DNA from: a phage
Sequence record: PZ154896.1
Direction: 5' to 3' (one strand)
DNA: 64,000 nt
Positions 5,764 to 43,684 of this stretch are shown here, piece by piece (position 1 is the first letter of the stretch; each line of letters opens with the position of its first letter). A model generated the notes under the pieces. The model was not told where the DNA came from. It saw nothing but the letters and a program-made list of their open reading frames with translations, and searched no databases. Position numbers and translations under genes: made by a program.

Positions 5764-6310
5764 CCTCATATAAAAAATCCAAACTAGGCGAATCGCTAAC
5801 AACTTCCTTCTTTTCAGCCCCAGGAGCTTTATAAGCGGATTCTTCATAATGCGTCATTTTATCGTAGATGTCTTGAATAAACGTTTCATCTACCAACGCT
5901 ACCATATCATCGTCATGACTGTCGTAGACATTATGAACGAAGTAACTATATTTCTTTGCAACTTCCTTACGTTCTTTTTTGATACGTTGGACAAAAGCAT
6001 TAAAACAAGCTCGAGTTATGTATGCATGTGGGTTATTGTACTTAGTTTCGTCGAAATTATGAAGTCCCTTAATAGAGGCTTCAATCCCATCTGCAATCAT
6101 CTCCTGCTTCCAAGACTGGGTATATCCTGAAAAGTTGAAACGTTTGGACAGGCCTTCGGCGATAAGCATAATTGCTAAACCGATGGTATCATTCTGACGA
6201 ATAATTTTGTTTGGGTCTTTATTATTTAAGAGCTCCTTTTTCCACTCGATTATAGCGGCGAGAAGCTCTTTATTATTCACATAATTATTTTTAGGTTTTT
6301 GTTCAGTCAT
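5753..6310 (-). CDS. 55: late-transcription sigma factor gp55
   Basis: 185 aa, size and recalled sequence match T4 gp55. Confidence 0.88.
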
Positions 6311-6465
6311 AAGTACCTCTTAGCTCAATTCATAGGTCTATTATATCATAATATTTAGAGACCTATCTTAAAGCACGAGATACTATCAAAGATACGTAAC
6401 TTTCATAAAGTTGTCGACTTAAAATTCACCAAACTTTTCTTCGGTTATAGCGATTCAAGATAGTT

Positions 6466-6693
6466 TCATTCTATTTCCTTTGCTGCAAATAAGGCAGCAT
6501 CCAACGAATCAAATTGGTCAACGAAATCAATATTCAACGCATCGTCAACCGTAGCATATAACCACCATTGTTTGAATTCATATTCTAGGATAAATCCAGG
6601 CCCTTCAATCTGAGGAAGACCTAGGCTATTTGTACCAACTTCGTAACCAGCTAGACGCAGGTCATTAATCAAAGTTTCTGTTAATACGCTCAT
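6466..6693 (-). CDS. hypothetical protein
   Basis: 75-aa ORF, 55.x accessory block. Confidence 0.4.
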   Translation of the reverse strand: MSVLTETLINDLRLAGYEVGTNSLGLPQIEGPGFILEYEFKQWWLYATVDDALNIDFVDQFDSLDAALFAAKEIE

Positions 6694-7022
6694 TTTACCG
6701 CCTTAACAATTTTCAGGTCAACGAATTTTTTCTTACGTTGATTTTTCATACGACGGATAGTTTTTTCAGAGATTTCATGTTTCTGATAAGCTTTAGATTC
6801 AACACCAAATGCAGCAACGTCAAATTCAGAAAGAATATATTGTACTAGAATTTCGCGAATAGAATTACGTCCAATTTTCTGGTCGTGTTTTTGCATGATT
6901 TCATAAAGACGGAATTCCCACGCGTCAAGAACTTGAGGAGTAACAATATTGCCGGATTCAAGAAGAGCAACAACTTTATCGAAAGCGAAAGAATTAACTA
7001 CATTTTTGATTTTAGTAGACAT
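6690..7022 (-). CDS. hypothetical protein
   Basis: start at MSTKIKN preceded by GAGGAAAATAAT; promoter cassette upstream. Confidence 0.45.
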   Translation of the reverse strand: MSTKIKNVVNSFAFDKVVALLESGNIVTPQVLDAWEFRLYEIMQKHDQKIGRNSIREILVQYILSEFDVAAFGVESKAYQKHEISEKTIRRMKNQRKKKFVDLKIVKAVK

Positions 7023-17965: not shown

Positions 17966-17984
17966 GTTTTACCTCCAGTAGTTG

Positions 17985-18021
17985 ATAGGTCTATAATAAC
18001 ACAACCATAGACCTTGTAAAC
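17985..18021 (-). promoter_or_regulatory. PeSL-like early promoter cassette
   Basis: rc: GTTTAC, inverted repeat GGTCTAT/ATAGACC around TTATTAT. Confidence 0.55.
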
Positions 18022-19451: not shown

Positions 19452-19460
19452 TTCGTTTCG

Positions 19461-19497
19461 ATAGGTCTATAATAACATGTTTAAAGCAAAAGTAAAC
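19461..19497 (-). promoter_or_regulatory. PeSL-like early promoter cassette
   Basis: rc: GTTTAC-N17-TTATTATAGACCTATC. Confidence 0.55.
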
Positions 19498-28652: not shown

Positions 28653-28982
28653 TTATACTCTAGGCTTTTGAGCTTGTTTGGTATTGGATTCCCATGCGGC
28701 TTTGGTAATTTTGTTAGCGGCATAACCAAAGGCATTAGATAGAACACCTTTAGAGTTGAATACATCCAATCCAATAAGTACACCTGCTGTGTTAAATTTA
28801 GGAGCAAAGTACGCATTAGTTTTAGAAAGAGCTTTTTTCAATTCAGGGTCTTGAACCAAGCCATCAAAAACGCCTTTACCATTTACTTTATATGTTACTT
28901 TGGGATTTTTAGCTTCTTCGATAGCAGCTTTCTGTTCCGCAGATAGTGTAACTTCAGTAATAAATTCTTGATAGGTTTTCAT
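28653..28982 (-). CDS. internal-protein-like capsid-targeted protein (IP family)
   Basis: starts MKTYQEFITE (capsid targeting sequence, IxE cleavage motif); 109 aa. Confidence 0.65.
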   Translation of the reverse strand: MKTYQEFITEVTLSAEQKAAIEEAKNPKVTYKVNGKGVFDGLVQDPELKKALSKTNAYFAPKFNTAGVLIGLDVFNSKGVLSNAFGYAANKITKAAWESNTKQAQKPRV

Positions 28983-29043
28983 TTTGTTCTCTCTAGGTTT
29001 AGACCATTCCATGGCCCATGAATTGTCCATTTTCCGTATTTAC

Positions 29044-29093
29044 CACTCCAAGTAATTATGAATATACTATCACAATTCTAGGAGAAAGTAAAC
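29044..29093 (-). promoter_or_regulatory. PeSL-like early promoter cassette
   Basis: rc: GTTTAC, CTCC/GGAG inverted repeat around TAGTAT. Confidence 0.5.
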
Positions 29094-29095
29094 TG

Positions 29096-29398
29096 TTATT
29101 TACCTTTAATTACTTTAGCTGCTTCGATAGCCGCTTGCTGAAGGTCGTCCATAGACATACCGAATTTAGAAGCAAAGTTATCAATTTTCTTTTCGACCGC
29201 ATTCAAAGGCTTGGCCTGTTTACCTTCATTAGCGCCTGGAAGAGCGAGAATACGCTCTTTGTCAATATAAAGGCTTACAAGTTTCTTACGGTCTTTATCG
29301 GACAAATCATGAAATGAATGGGCCTTTTTATTTATAGCGGCTTCTAATTTACCTGCGCTCACTCGCGCTTCAGTAATAAATTCTTGATATGTTTTCAT
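29096..29398 (-). CDS. ipII: internal protein II-like
   Basis: 100 aa; starts MKTYQEFITEA; size matches T4 IPII. Confidence 0.6.
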   Translation of the reverse strand: MKTYQEFITEARVSAGKLEAAINKKAHSFHDLSDKDRKKLVSLYIDKERILALPGANEGKQAKPLNAVEKKIDNFASKFGMSMDDLQQAAIEAAKVIKGK

Positions 29399-29439
29399 AT
29401 GTTTCCTTTAAATGTAAATAGGCCTAAATATAGGCCTTA

Positions 29440-30018
29440 TTAATTACCACGGGCTGCATTAGCAACGGCATAAGCGTACTGAACATTAGCGTCTTTAAAC
29501 GTACCTTTAGAGGTATCTATTTCTGCCTTAAAGCCGCCTTTAGCCATAACATCGGCAAATTCTTTACGGAAAGCCATTGCATCAAGACCTTTCCATGATG
29601 ATTTGTGCTTGGCGAATTCAAGACCAGCGTAGTTGACAGCCTTAGCTAATTTATTATCAATAACCCATTTACCGGCTTTAGGCACAAACTTCGGTCCTTT
29701 TTGTTTAGAGAACAGTTTTAAATTCCAGCGACGAAGATCACTGTCGGCTTTAACAAAAGCTGCATCTAAGTTACTAGCAACAACATCTTCAATATGAGCA
29801 AATTTAAGTCCGTCAACTTCAATATTTAGATCGTTACGCCAGCGAAGTCCTTCCCAAGCGAAGGCTTTAAAATCAGAAGCTTTTGTGGCTAGATATCGTT
29901 CAAGTGGAGCAGTTTTAGGGTCAAAGCCGTTTCCGCCACGATAAGTCCACTCGTCCTTATTAATGCCTTGAGCTTTTCCTGCAAAGGCCTCGGCGATAAA
30001 TTCTTTATATGTTTTCAT
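29440..30018 (-). CDS. ipIII: internal protein III-like
   Basis: 192 aa; starts MKTYKEFIAEA; size matches T4 IPIII. Confidence 0.6.
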   Translation of the reverse strand: MKTYKEFIAEAFAGKAQGINKDEWTYRGGNGFDPKTAPLERYLATKASDFKAFAWEGLRWRNDLNIEVDGLKFAHIEDVVASNLDAAFVKADSDLRRWNLKLFSKQKGPKFVPKAGKWVIDNKLAKAVNYAGLEFAKHKSSWKGLDAMAFRKEFADVMAKGGFKAEIDTSKGTFKDANVQYAYAVANAARGN

Positions 30019-30036
30019 TTTTGTTTCCTTGTTTGT

Positions 30037-30078
30037 TTTGATAGAGTAATTATACCATATTAATACTTAAGCGTAAAC
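30037..30078 (-). promoter_or_regulatory. early promoter cassette
   Basis: rc: GTTTAC-N18-TATAAT. Confidence 0.55.
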
Positions 30079-30081
30079 TGT

Positions 30082-30342
30082 TTAAGCTTTACCGCCGGAA
30101 ATAATTCCGAAGTTGTTAAAATCGTATCCAATATCGTCAACATCTACTTTAGGGCTTGCTACAACATAAGCAATTTCACTACGTTTTGCATAGGTGTTGA
30201 TTTCTTTACCATCGCCACCTAAGAAAAAATACCCATTACGTTTTAATGAGCCAAAGTCTTCCGCATCACCAATGAAAGCTTTAACTTTAAATTTAGGACC
30301 TTTGGCATCTGCTTCAGCGATAAATTCTTGATACATTTTCAT
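30082..30342 (-). CDS. internal-protein-like capsid-targeted protein
   Basis: 86 aa; starts MKMYQEFIAEA. Confidence 0.6.
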   Translation of the reverse strand: MKMYQEFIAEADAKGPKFKVKAFIGDAEDFGSLKRNGYFFLGGDGKEINTYAKRSEIAYVVASPKVDVDDIGYDFNNFGIISGGKA

Positions 30343-30348
30343 TTTTCC

Positions 30349-30762
30349 TTAGTAAATTGATTTACCATAGTATTTGTACCAAGTAGGGCGCTGAGCAATT
30401 TTTTCATCTAAGCGTGCTTGACTTATCGCAATGGACGCTTCGGACGGGACATAATTATTACGAAATTCGGCAGGGATGTCGGAAATATCTTGGACAGTTG
30501 TGTCCTTGATTTTGAAACCACGTTTCAAGCATTCAGCGATTAACTCGATTTGACGTAAACGTAAAAATTCGAGTTTGTCGTAAAAGAATGTTACATGACC
30601 TGTGCCTAAGATAAATGTTGGAGAGATTTTAAAATCCTTTACACGTTTACCGTTTTGAACATGTTTACGGACTGCACCAAATACGCGTGGTAATTCACGA
30701 TACTCTGCCATAAGATGTTGGTCGGTCAGTTCAGAAACAAGTGTTAAATTGATACGAGTCAT
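30349..30762 (-). CDS. denV: endonuclease V (pyrimidine-dimer DNA glycosylase)
   Basis: start [12 protein letters not shown]; near-colinear by recall with T4 DenV; 137 aa. Confidence 0.9.
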
Positions 30763-30766
30763 AATT

Positions 30767-30819
30767 TCCTCCAAGTAGTTGATGAATGTATAGTATCAAA
30801 GTCCTTGGAGGAAGTAAAC
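30767..30819 (-). promoter_or_regulatory. PeSL-like cassette upstream of denV
   Basis: rc: GTTTAC; inverted repeat CCTCCAAGG/CTTGGAGG, 3' arm contains the denV SD. Confidence 0.55.
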
Positions 30820-30820
30820 A

Positions 30821-31102
30821 CTATTTTTCTGAAGCGCCTGAAATATATTTTTCAAGACGTTGTTTCATCAGCGAGCCGTTCTTAGCGATTTCTTCCGGTT
30901 TATCGCACATACGTAACAAGGCTTCAAGCTTAACGATATCACTGGTGCGCTCAAATTTGCGAGTATCTATCTTACTAGCAAGTTCAGAAATACGTGCTAA
31001 TAGACTTTCAGCTTCAACCAAAGCTGCACCTAGCTTAGTTGCAAATGTGTCAGTAGCTTCGTTAAGAATAGATTCTGATAAAAATTCACTATATGTTTTC
31101 AT
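30821..31102 (-). CDS. internal-protein-like capsid-targeted protein
   Basis: starts [10 protein letters not shown]; ATG overlaps gene e stop (ATGA). Confidence 0.6.
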
Positions 31103-34875: not shown

Positions 34876-34915
34876 TGATAGGACTACTATAACATAGCCC
34901 TATCTTGTTGTAAAC
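34876..34915 (-). promoter_or_regulatory. PeSL-like early promoter cassette
   Basis: rc: GTTTAC, inverted repeat GATAGGGCTA/TAGTCCTATC. Confidence 0.55.
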
Positions 34916-38724: not shown

Positions 38725-38744
38725 AATATTCTCCCCATGTTTTG

Positions 38745-38781
38745 ATAGGTCTATAGTAACACATCTAGGGAAGAAGTAAAC
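38745..38781 (-). promoter_or_regulatory. PeSL-like early promoter cassette
   Basis: rc: GTTGTTTAC-N-TACTATAGACCTATC; same core as the regB cassette. Confidence 0.55.
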
Positions 38782-38833: not shown

Positions 38834-39460
38834 TTACTTACGAGTTTTTGCATACTGAGCAGCGTCAGCAGCCAAACGACCTGCCTGACGAAGTTTTTCT
38901 TTAATCGCATCGTGAAGTGGTTGAGTATACTTCAAACCTTCGATAGTCAAATAAAGACGATAAAGGTCTGGGGTATCAAGGTTGTTGATATGTTGGCCAT
39001 TACGAAGACTGTTGAATTCACGAACGAGTGAAGATGTATCGGATTCAATATCGCGAACAAGCGAAGATAGTTGTTTATATTTTTTTTCCAGGCTAGAAGT
39101 ATCAAACTTAAGAGCAGGAGCTTTAGGAGTTGCTTTTACTTCCGGCTTAGGCTCAGGTTTTGCTATTGCTTTAGGGGTCGCAGGTTTAGGAACGGTAGGA
39201 GCAGGTTTTACTTTAGGCGAACCCGATTTAGCAGAAACACCGCCACTAACAATATCTTTGAACGCTTTAGAAGCTCTGTAATATTCTTTTTGGCTGGAAG
39301 TGTCGATACCATACATGGCTTGAACGTTTTTGAAAAACTCTGTACTAGTTTTTGTACCAGAAATAGCATCGTAAGCAGCTTGCCATTTCTCTTTTGTCAT
39401 ACGTACACCGGCTTCGGTGATTACTTCCGTTTCGGCTAAAAATTCATTAAAAGTATACAT
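38834..39460 (-). CDS. capsid-targeting-sequence protein with Pro/Lys-rich linker
   Basis: 208 aa; N-terminus MYTFNEFLAE resembles IP capsid targeting sequence; central PKPxxP low-complexity region. Confidence 0.5.
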   Translation of the reverse strand: MYTFNEFLAETEVITEAGVRMTKEKWQAAYDAISGTKTSTEFFKNVQAMYGIDTSSQKEYYRASKAFKDIVSGGVSAKSGSPKVKPAPTVPKPATPKAIAKPEPKPEVKATPKAPALKFDTSSLEKKYKQLSSLVRDIESDTSSLVREFNSLRNGQHINNLDTPDLYRLYLTIEGLKYTQPLHDAIKEKLRQAGRLAADAAQYAKTRK

Positions 39461-39504
39461 TGATGGTCCTTAGAAAGTAGGTTTATTGTTTACTATATTT
39501 ATAC

Positions 39505-40199: not shown

Positions 40200-40276
<77 letters not shown>

Positions 40277-40279
40277 GAT

Positions 40280-40354
40280 TGGTGACCCTGGCTGGTTTCG
40301 ATCCAGCTACCTATCAGTTATGAGCTGACAGCTCTCCCATTGAGCTACAGGGCC
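40280..40354 (-). tRNA. tRNA-Met/Ile (anticodon CAT)
   Basis: hand-folded cloverleaf: acceptor GGCCCTG/CAGGGTC, D-arm GCTCAATGGGAGAGC, anticodon loop CTCATAA, encoded CCA; 3 nt from tRNA-Arg. Confidence 0.7.
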
Positions 40355-41246: not shown

Positions 41247-41630
41247 TTAACCTTTATCAACAATAGTATGTGTATGGGCATTTACGATTTGCCACCAGTC
41301 AAAACTATCGCCAAATCGTTTTGATTTATTGTCTTCAATAATTTGGCGTAATTCATCTTCAGTAGCGGCTTTCGCGATTAAATCAGCATATCCACCACGA
41401 GGATAATAATTATCACCTGCAAAAAGTAAAAAGTTTGGTTTAATATTATTAAACTCTTCAAGAGTAATAACTGTTCCACCAGGTTGAACAATATCTACAT
41501 AACTATATCCTAATTTTTGAGCAGCATCTACTGCTTCAAGCAGGGTATCATGAGCCCATCCAATTTGGCAATCTGGCTTTTCAGATGGATTAGCCTGATA
41601 ATCCGCGTACACTTTATACATTCTATTCAC
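41247..41630 (-). CDS. hypothetical protein
   Basis: 127-aa ORF. Confidence 0.45.
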   Translation of the reverse strand: MNRMYKVYADYQANPSEKPDCQIGWAHDTLLEAVDAAQKLGYSYVDIVQPGGTVITLEEFNNIKPNFLLFAGDNYYPRGGYADLIAKAATEDELRQIIEDNKSKRFGDSFDWWQIVNAHTHTIVDKG

Positions 41631-41808
41631 CTTTAGAAATTTTATCCATAACGATAGCGATTAAACCGATTAGAAATGCTACTACCAATGAGATAGAATT
41701 TTCTGTTGTTGTCAGTAGTCCACAAATGAATCCTACAAACATCGAAAAACTAAAAGCCATTGAAGCAATTACTACAGCAACATTACGAATCAGTTCAGCG
41801 CGTTTCAT
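41623..41808 (-). CDS. small membrane protein
   Basis: 61 aa, largely hydrophobic. Confidence 0.4.
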   Translation of the reverse strand: MKRAELIRNVAVVIASMAFSFSMFVGFICGLLTTTENSISLVVAFLIGLIAIVMDKISKGE

Positions 41809-41828
41809 TTTATTCTCCTCAGTAGTTG

Positions 41829-41866
41829 ATAGGGTAATAGTATCACTACCCTATCTAAAAGTAAAC
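41829..41866 (-). promoter_or_regulatory. PeSL-like early promoter cassette
   Basis: rc: GTTTAC, perfect inverted repeat ATAGGGTA/TACCCTAT around GTGATACTAT. Confidence 0.55.
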
Positions 41867-41877
41867 GGTTTTATAAA

Positions 41878-42186
41878 CTATTTTATTCCACGTGATGCAA
41901 TCGTATTCTGCCGTTTAACGCCAGTTTGTTTAAAGTCATGACTGTCGATTTGATCGGTACGAGCAACTCCGAACGATGATTTAATCTTAGCTTTAGATCC
42001 TTTAGTTATAGAAATAAACATCTCAGAGGACCCTTTCTTAAAGTCTGATGCAGATACTTCAACGCCGTTCTTAGCAAGTGACCTCAGAATTGCATCTGCG
42101 TACTCATCATCAAGACTCGCTTGAGTATTAATAACGAATGTCTTTGGCGCAGCTGCTTCACAGATAAATTCTTTAAATGTTTTCAT
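41878..42186 (-). CDS. internal protein at the ipI locus (IPI-like, divergent)
   Basis: 102 aa; starts MKTFKEFICEA; immediately upstream of 57B as ipI is in T4. Confidence 0.6.
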   Translation of the reverse strand: MKTFKEFICEAAAPKTFVINTQASLDDEYADAILRSLAKNGVEVSASDFKKGSSEMFISITKGSKAKIKSSFGVARTDQIDSHDFKQTGVKRQNTIASRGIK

Positions 42187-42206
42187 TTTATTTTCCTAAT
42201 TAATTT

Positions 42207-42246
42207 TGATAGGACTACTATAACATAGTCCTATCAGCATGTAAAC
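42207..42246 (-). promoter_or_regulatory. PeSL-like early promoter cassette upstream of the ipI-locus gene
   Basis: rc: GTTTAC, perfect 10-bp inverted repeat GATAGGACTA/TAGTCCTATC around TGTTATAG. Confidence 0.55.
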
Positions 42247-42259
42247 TGTTTTGTGAAAA

Positions 42260-42945
<686 letters not shown>

Positions 42946-42949
42946 TTTA

Positions 42950-43684
42950 TTACCTTAAGATTGTTTCAATTTTAGAATAAAGCTCTTCTAAAGAGCCGTC
43001 GTTTGTAATAACTAAATCGCCTTCTTCAATAGGCAACCCAGCTTCTGTAATATGTTTATCAGTGGATTCCGTACCAGAGCGAACCACATGAATAACTGTA
43101 GCACCCATCGCTCTAGCGGTTTCCATTTCATGGACTTGGCGTGTATCGGTTACAACATAGTAATCGAAATCACTTCCAATATAATCCATATAGTTTAATG
43201 CAAAAAGTTTAACCCAATACATACGGTCAAATAAATTAACGACAACATCCGTACCGAGGGCTTGCATAAGACGGCGGATTGACCATGTGTCGTTGATATT
43301 ATTTATAGCTTCACGCAGGGCTTCATATGGTTTAATATCTAGATATGAATACCCACCTTCTAATGATGATAATACTTTAACATTATTAATTGGTAAATAT
43401 TGACTTTGTAAATAAATTAGCGCTTCTTCCAATAATTCAATAACATCCAACTTATTGAGATTTAATGGTGTTTCACGGTCGTATCCAACACCTTCGAAGT
43501 ATTCATATTTCAACTCAGTGAATACATCAGGATTTTCAGCATGCCTACGTCCCCAGGCTATTGCTAGAGCGTCTTTAATCGGATATGCCAATTGGTATTT
43601 TACGGATTTAAAGTTTGAATTGATGTAATCGGCAGTAGTGTCTTTACCACTACGTTTGATGCCGCTTAAAAAGATTAGCTCCAT
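42950..43684 (-). CDS. 1: deoxynucleoside monophosphate kinase (gp1)
   Basis: 244 aa; P-loop GIKRSGKDT; size and position as T4 gene 1. Confidence 0.85.
   Translation of the reverse strand: MELIFLSGIKRSGKDTTADYINSNFKSVKYQLAYPIKDALAIAWGRRHAENPDVFTELKYEYFEGVGYDRETPLNLNKLDVIELLEEALIYLQSQYLPINNVKVLSSLEGGYSYLDIKPYEALREAINNINDTWSIRRLMQALGTDVVVNLFDRMYWVKLFALNYMDYIGSDFDYYVVTDTRQVHEMETARAMGATVIHVVRSGTESTDKHITEAGLPIEEGDLVITNDGSLEELYSKIETILR

Follow-up and report, generated by a model that had tools for sequence, protein, structure and literature searches.

The window analysed here is a 64,000-nucleotide stretch of phage DNA (sequence record PZ154896.1; one strand, 5' to 3'). Between gene 57B and a tRNA.4-like open reading frame (ORF), it holds an ORF of 102 codons that is assigned below, by homology, to the internal head protein Ip7. 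The features of the locus are as follows.

41878..42186, minus strand: ip7 coding sequence, 102 codons plus stop, ATG start; precursor of internal head protein Ip7
42157..42186, minus strand: capsid-targeting sequence (CTS) of Ip7, codons 1-10, MKTFKEFICE, closing with an I-x-E motif
41881..42156, minus strand: predicted mature Ip7*, residues 11-102, 92 aa, pI about 9.7
42187..42259, minus strand: upstream PeSL cassette, the 73-nt 57B-ip7 spacer; -35 element TTTACA at 42240-42245 and -10 element TATAGT at 42217-42222
41809..41877, minus strand: downstream PeSL cassette, the ip7-tRNA.4 spacer; GTTTAC, then a GATAGGGTA / TACCCTATC hairpin around TACTAT
42260-42715, minus strand: 57B (Acb1 family), conserved left anchor of the locus; Pfam PF23474 Acb1, E 1.8e-58
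41623..41808, minus strand: tRNA.4-like 61-aa ORF, conserved right anchor of the locus; PHROG 1692, E 8.8e-33
Coordinates above 57B, minus strand: 57A, gene 1, gp3 and gp2, same-strand neighbours
40200-40354, minus strand: tRNA-Met and tRNA-Arg, beyond the tRNA.4-, tRNA.3- and tRNA.2-like ORFs and one more ORF

Translation of ip7 opens MKTFKEFICEAAAPK (longer N-terminal stretch, MKTFKEFICEAAAPKTFVINT), and a Shine-Dalgarno AGGA lies at 42194-42197, 7 nt 5' of the ATG. Its CTS is of the MKTYQEFIAE type carried by T4-type head internal proteins (IPs), and the protein has a single [LI]xE site, I8-C9-E10; in other IPs, cleavage by the T4 prohead protease gp21 follows (L/I)-x-E. Six-frame translation of the window gave five occurrences of the strict CTS pattern MKT[FY].EF[ILV].E, against a mean of 0 in 200 shuffles. 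A 102-aa ORF with a CTS had been proposed at 41878-42186 in the first-pass annotation, and the ORF list, the sequence and this motif count bear it out.

The left anchor, 57B, was 100% identical (amino acids) to 57B of Shigella phage phi25-307 and matched Pfam Acb1, an anti-CBASS nuclease, over its full length, which places the IP slot directly downstream of another counter-defence gene. For the right anchor, a tRNA.4 annotation exists in phages ATK47 and RB69. The same first reading had put the ORF at the T4 ipI locus, upstream of 57B and next to the tRNA region. The slot between 57B and the tRNA region is correct, with two refinements: the whole set is encoded on the minus strand, so that transcription reaches 57B first and ip7 lies downstream of it, and four ORFs stand between ip7 and the tRNA genes.

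A looser CTS pattern returned seven CTS ORFs in the window, namely ip7, five ORFs at 28653-31102, and one at 38834-39460. The five form a second IP cluster (minus strand) with products of 109, 100 (Ip2-like, 29096-29398), 192 (Ip3-like, 29440-30018), 86, and 93 aa, whose mature parts are mutually unrelated. In T2 and Bas37, the first IP of the ipI locus shares 48% identity with the 93-aa ORF (30821-31102), so that one IP family is found in different loci of different phages. The ORF at 38834-39460 (208 aa, minus strand) has MYTFNEFLAE as a variant CTS, is rich in Pro and Lys in its middle part, and matches PHROG 2280 (function unassigned). Upstream of it, reaching 39540, are an exact late promoter (TATAAATA, 39496-39503) and a GC-rich hairpin. 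The product appears to be an unnamed CTS protein, expressed late and encoded beside the tRNA genes.

PeSL cassettes and promoters around ip7

By the published definition, a PeSL is a stem-loop overlapping the -10 element of an early, sigma-70-like promoter (TTTACW-N17-TAYWAT), and PeSLs repeat in hyperplastic regions, where they flank variable ORFs. Both ip7 spacers have this layout, their promoter and terminator elements being predicted from sequence. On the minus strand, the upstream cassette carries TTTACA-17 nt-TATAGT, a promoter of the sigma-70 type (TG upstream, 10/12 matches), whose -10 element sits in and beside the loop of an inverted repeat with arms at 42207-42217 and 42226-42236 (11 nt, 100% complementary, 8 nt apart). 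As RNA, this hairpin was predicted at -17.7 kcal/mol (z = -3.7). A PeSL with a perfect 10-bp inverted repeat had been claimed in front of the ORF; it is present, with a repeat of 11 bp.

The downstream cassette (hairpin, -16.4 kcal/mol; z -2.9) shares direct repeat D1 with the upstream one, is identical in ATK47, P922, and phi25-307, and is likely to act as an attenuator for ip7 transcripts and as a promoter for tRNA.4. The motif GTTTAC-N10-30-CCTATC was found six times in the window (0.12 expected), always on the minus strand; the other four copies lie at 17984-18021, 19460-19497, 34877-34915, and 38744-38781.

The 57B-ip7 spacer holds no exact late promoter (TATAAATA), so late expression of ip7 for prohead loading would need read-through. 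On the ip7 strand, the nearest such motif is at 43300-43307, inside gene 1 and 1.1 kb upstream; it is the only exact late-promoter motif upstream of 57A-57B-ip7 on the minus strand and a possible source of late read-through ip7 transcripts.

Family membership and predicted fold

The closest named relative is ATK47 YP_010088364 (98% amino acid identity), annotated 'Ip7; similar to RB15 Ip7: CAA84464; similar to RB15 and K3 Ip7', followed by P922 'internal head protein 7' (94%), a phage T2 internal head protein (92%), RB69ORF156c (66%), and the genes called ip7 in VR20 together with Klebsiella phage homologues (about 50%). The ORF matched PHROG 2667 'internal head protein' over its full length (E 3.6e-41, residues 1-102), and its best structural match in BFVD was 'Ip7 protein [phage MX01]' (E 1.2e-12). 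Judged by these alignments, it is the known protein Ip7, a full-length homologue of the named members and no new effector; the novelty implied at first pass falls away, since the ATK47, P922, T2, and PHROG 2667 matches all belong to the named family. RB15/K3 Ip7 (GenBank CAA84464) is said to come from a 1994 study of ip-locus polymorphism by Repoila and colleagues, and the name Ip7 presumably dates to that year, going by GenBank notes and later papers.

With tblastn, the Ip7 family was detected in 284 of 50,697 phage records. When 1.84 billion representative proteins were searched with a profile, only Ip7 relatives were returned, which argues that the family is confined to T4-like phages; the one further match, a tandem-repeat protein and candidate non-phage homologue, was dismissed as spurious. 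A sub-threshold Pfam match to AbiJ_NTD3 (E 0.025), which scored 14 bits where the cut-off is 32.5, was set aside as noise. Searches of NCBIfam and PADLOC with Ip7 gave no match, and a sequence search of the PDB gave no meaningful match. The 77-aa 'ip7 protein' of phage OLB35 lacks the CTS and joins Ip7 residues 29-72 to an unrelated C-terminus; this chimeric allele is probably a recombination or annotation remnant.

In an alignment of 26 Ip7 sequences (38-95% identity), invariant or nearly invariant positions were the CTS, P14-K15-x-F17, L25-D26, I33, and V44, and, in the C-terminal half, K62-G63-S64-x-x-K67, G73-V74, and R92-x-N94-T95 in the tail. AF2 modeling with this alignment gave a mean pLDDT of 74.4 and superseded a poor model from 12 close sequences (pLDDT 62.8). 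Strands 15-21, 43-49, 55-62, and 74-80 and helices 27-39 and 65-69 were modeled with confidence, and residues 14-80 are confidently predicted to form a ferredoxin-like beta-alpha-beta-beta-alpha-beta core. The tail (residues 81-102) is conserved and basic, holds the R-Q-N-T-I motif, and had low AF2 confidence.

The same alignment bears on whether Ip7 is packaged at all. It could be an early cytoplasmic protein only, with a CTS-like N-terminus left as a relic of recombination at a shared 5' end; the promoter evident directly upstream is of the early type only, the searchable literature yielded no virion proteomics of Ip7, and the chimeric OLB35 allele does without a CTS. A relic would not be expected to keep its residues, but M1, E6, F7, I8, and E10 are invariant throughout the family, even in members of 38-54% identity. 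In addition, GFP and other foreign proteins have been encapsidated by means of the IP CTS (T4 head review). We consider an unpackaged Ip7 very improbable.

Beyond the CTS, Ip7 stands apart from the other CTS proteins of the window, as had been noted at first pass: with the CTS removed, all pairwise BLASTP comparisons gave E > 0.1. The 86-aa CTS ORF (30082-30342) was considered as a relative, given a PHROG 2667 match and hhalign probabilities of 87-92%, and was rejected when the probability against CTS-less Ip7 dropped to 0.2%, a drop which indicates that the link was driven by the CTS.

Gene exchange at the 57B-tRNA.4 slot

Positions 41600-42300 of the window were 100% identical to Escherichia phage EP02SG and 96% identical to phi25-307 (Mosigvirus), and positions 1-725 were 98.5% identical to EP02SG 6277-7001 (coordinate offset, about 600 bp), so that the window comes from a close relative of EP02SG and not from EP02SG itself. 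The window phage is Mosigvirus-like (RB69-like), with ip7 as the sole IP gene at its 57B-tRNA.4 slot. T4-type phages have two polymorphic IP loci, one in the 57B-tRNA region and one in the e/denV-ipII/ipIII region; the interval that holds ip7 is the first of these. Its contents in the compared genomes, read from 57B to tRNA.4, are as follows.

Window and phi25-307: ip7 only
ATK47 and P922: ipI, then ip7
T2: an 84-aa IP, then ip7
RB69: an ip7-like gene, then ipI
Bas37: an 85-aa IP, then bas37_0260

The slot thus differs in gene content among these genomes, in agreement with the earlier statement that the ipI locus carries different effectors in different T-even phages. The position next to tRNA.4 is held by Ip7 in the window, T2, ATK47, and P922. 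In VR20 and the Klebsiella phages, the Ip7-like gene lies in the other IP locus, near e/denV; ip7 is exchanged from phage to phage and from one IP locus to the other. Beyond the CTS, no homologue of ipI was detected in the window (tblastn with mature IPI; nothing at E < 2.9), and ipI was not found in positions 1-105000 of EP02SG.

All spacers of the ip7 locus in four phages align as one PeSL family. Up to and including the -35 region, the 57B-ip7 spacer of the window matches the spacer between 57B and ipI in ATK47; thereafter it matches the ATK47 ipI-ip7 spacer. Such a two-part match is the trace expected from the published model, in which PeSL x PeSL recombination removes or adds ipI, and the spacer looks like a recombination joint of this kind, formed by gain or loss of ipI. 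Between the window and phi25-307, dS was 0.20 for ip7, against 0.02 for 57B, 0 for 57A, and 0.07 for tRNA.4, which points to a cassette swapped independently of its flanking genes. Across five orthologues, ip7 dN/dS was 0.10-0.52, indicating purifying selection on the reading frame.

These patterns also bear on whether Ip7 has a specific target. As a basic, DNA-associated head filler, it could serve charge neutralization, packing, or ejection and be kept only through CTS loading. Its mature part (pI about 9.7; 15 K+R, 10 D+E) resembles the window's Ip2-like and Ip3-like proteins in this respect, and none of the Ip7 homologues found in the Pfam, PDB, profile, NCBIfam, and PADLOC searches has a known activity. 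A filler, however, accords poorly with a folded, conserved domain whose motifs are nearly invariant over 38-95% identity and which is under purifying selection, and the patchy, cassette-like presence of ip7, with swaps for unrelated IPs, is typical of accessory counter-defence genes. Furthermore, the basic T4 proteins Ip2 and Ip3 proved to have specific targets. We hold the filler explanation to be quite unlikely.

Proposed function and comparison with known internal proteins

Our preferred reading, by analogy with characterized IPs and with a probability of roughly 0.5, is that Ip7 is a packaged and injected IP that blocks a host type IV restriction nuclease. Following T4 biology, the CTS would bring the precursor into the prohead scaffolding core, gp21 would remove residues 1-10, and the basic 92-residue Ip7* would remain with the packaged DNA and enter the host at the start of infection, while the early-type PeSL promoter would supply new Ip7 right after injection. 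Once in the cell, Ip7* would, on analogy only, bind and block a modification-dependent (type IV) nuclease that cuts sugar-modified hmC DNA.

Ip1, Ip2, and Ip3 inhibit one GmrSD enzyme each, a different one in every case, and do not cross-protect (Silas et al. 2025), and Bas37_0260 blocks McrBC (2025 preprint). All four T-even IPs with assigned targets therefore act on type IV restriction enzymes, which makes this the likeliest role for Ip7. The idea of an injected anti-restriction effector put forward in the first-pass annotation stands on this analogy as the best guess. Its GmrSD component, modeled on IPI*, is not directly supported: Ip7 has no similarity to IPI*, and the in-trans GmrSD assay suggested at the time has in part been carried out, ip4-10 having been screened against a panel of GmrSD variants with no reproducible interaction (signals such as ip7 x CLS_011 'could not be reproduced'; Silas et al. 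2025). T2 is restricted by GmrSD-ECOR17 and GmrSD-ECOR21 (Silas et al. 2025) yet carries a 92%-identical Ip7, which argues that neither enzyme is an Ip7 target at natural dose. The target is probably not among the GmrSD variants already screened.

DNA of the RB69 group carries arabinosyl-hmC, so the enzymes that matter for the window phage may not be the ones that were assayed with T-even phages; an enzyme able to attack both arabinosyl-hmC and glucosyl-hmC DNA could be the target. Tentatively, and with some doubt, we suggest that Ip7 might inhibit a type IV or other DNA-targeting defence outside known IP coverage by means of its body and a C-terminal tail inserted into a cleft. We would guess that the ferredoxin-like body docks on the enzyme and that the flexible basic tail (…K-R-Q-N-T-I…) fills the DNA-binding or catalytic cleft.

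The injected protein could also act against something other than a type IV enzyme, such as abortive-infection, retron, or CBASS-like immunity or a host process. This would fit the lack of a reproducible ip7 interaction in the GmrSD screen and the adjoining 57B/Acb1, which counters CBASS and not restriction. It would also fit the occurrence of Ip7-like genes in T2 (glucosyl-hmC), Mosigvirus (arabinosyl-hmC), Gaprivervirus, and Klebsiella phages, in which DNA modification differs or is uncertain; a spread of this kind is in keeping with a target independent of any one modification. Against it are the four-of-four record of type IV targets and the timing of delivery, injection ahead of expression being of greatest benefit where the incoming DNA is itself under enzymatic attack. 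We think such a target rather unlikely and retain a type IV nuclease as the preferred one.

IPs enter with the DNA and so act ahead of any phage gene expression. Ip7 is among the more widespread of those for which no target has been assigned, with 284 public genomes, among them those of T2, of RB69-like phages, and of therapeutic Klebsiella and Enterobacter phages; its target would close one gap in the matching of IPs to restriction enzymes and aid host-range prediction. If true, inhibition by body and tail would be a fifth, structurally unrelated IP solution, and an inhibitor of this sort could account for the ability of RB69-like phages to plate on wild strains despite lacking ipI. The ip7 locus offers a clean case of gene gain or loss through PeSL-PeSL recombination. 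Nothing here is new in kind, and the interest that is left lies in the target of Ip7 and its predicted body-plus-tail architecture.

Among known systems, T4 IPI/IPI* (PDB 2JUB; GmrSD inhibitor, E. coli CT596) resembles Ip7 in its locus, the logic of CTS-directed packaging, its near size, and its PeSL-type spacers. The comparison of profile and structure with IPI* proposed at first pass gave neither sequence nor fold similarity (hhalign of Ip7 against T4 IPI aligned residues 1-29 only, probability 55%), and Ip7 was rejected as an IPI*-type protein on both mature-part homology and the 2JUB fold. Bas37_0260 of phage KarlGJung (McrBC inhibitor) is likewise small (77 aa), bears a CTS, and occupies the slot adjoining tRNA.4, but its mature part is unrelated to that of Ip7 (hhalign, 0.2% without the CTS). 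It was ruled out as Ip7, being a distinct protein, and it is absent from the window. T4 Ip2 and Ip3, which inhibit GmrSD-ECOR21 and GmrSD-ECOR17, respectively, are basic CTS proteins like Ip7 and are coinjected with DNA, as is proposed for Ip7; they differ from it in locus and in mature parts that share no sequence similarity with Ip7. The likeness is closest to the RB15/K3 Ip7 family, with full-length homology, a length of 102 aa, a CTS, and the 57B-tRNA.4 locus in common, and the window differs from ATK47, P922, T2, and RB69 in that ip7 stands alone at the locus; its allele has Cys at CTS position 9.
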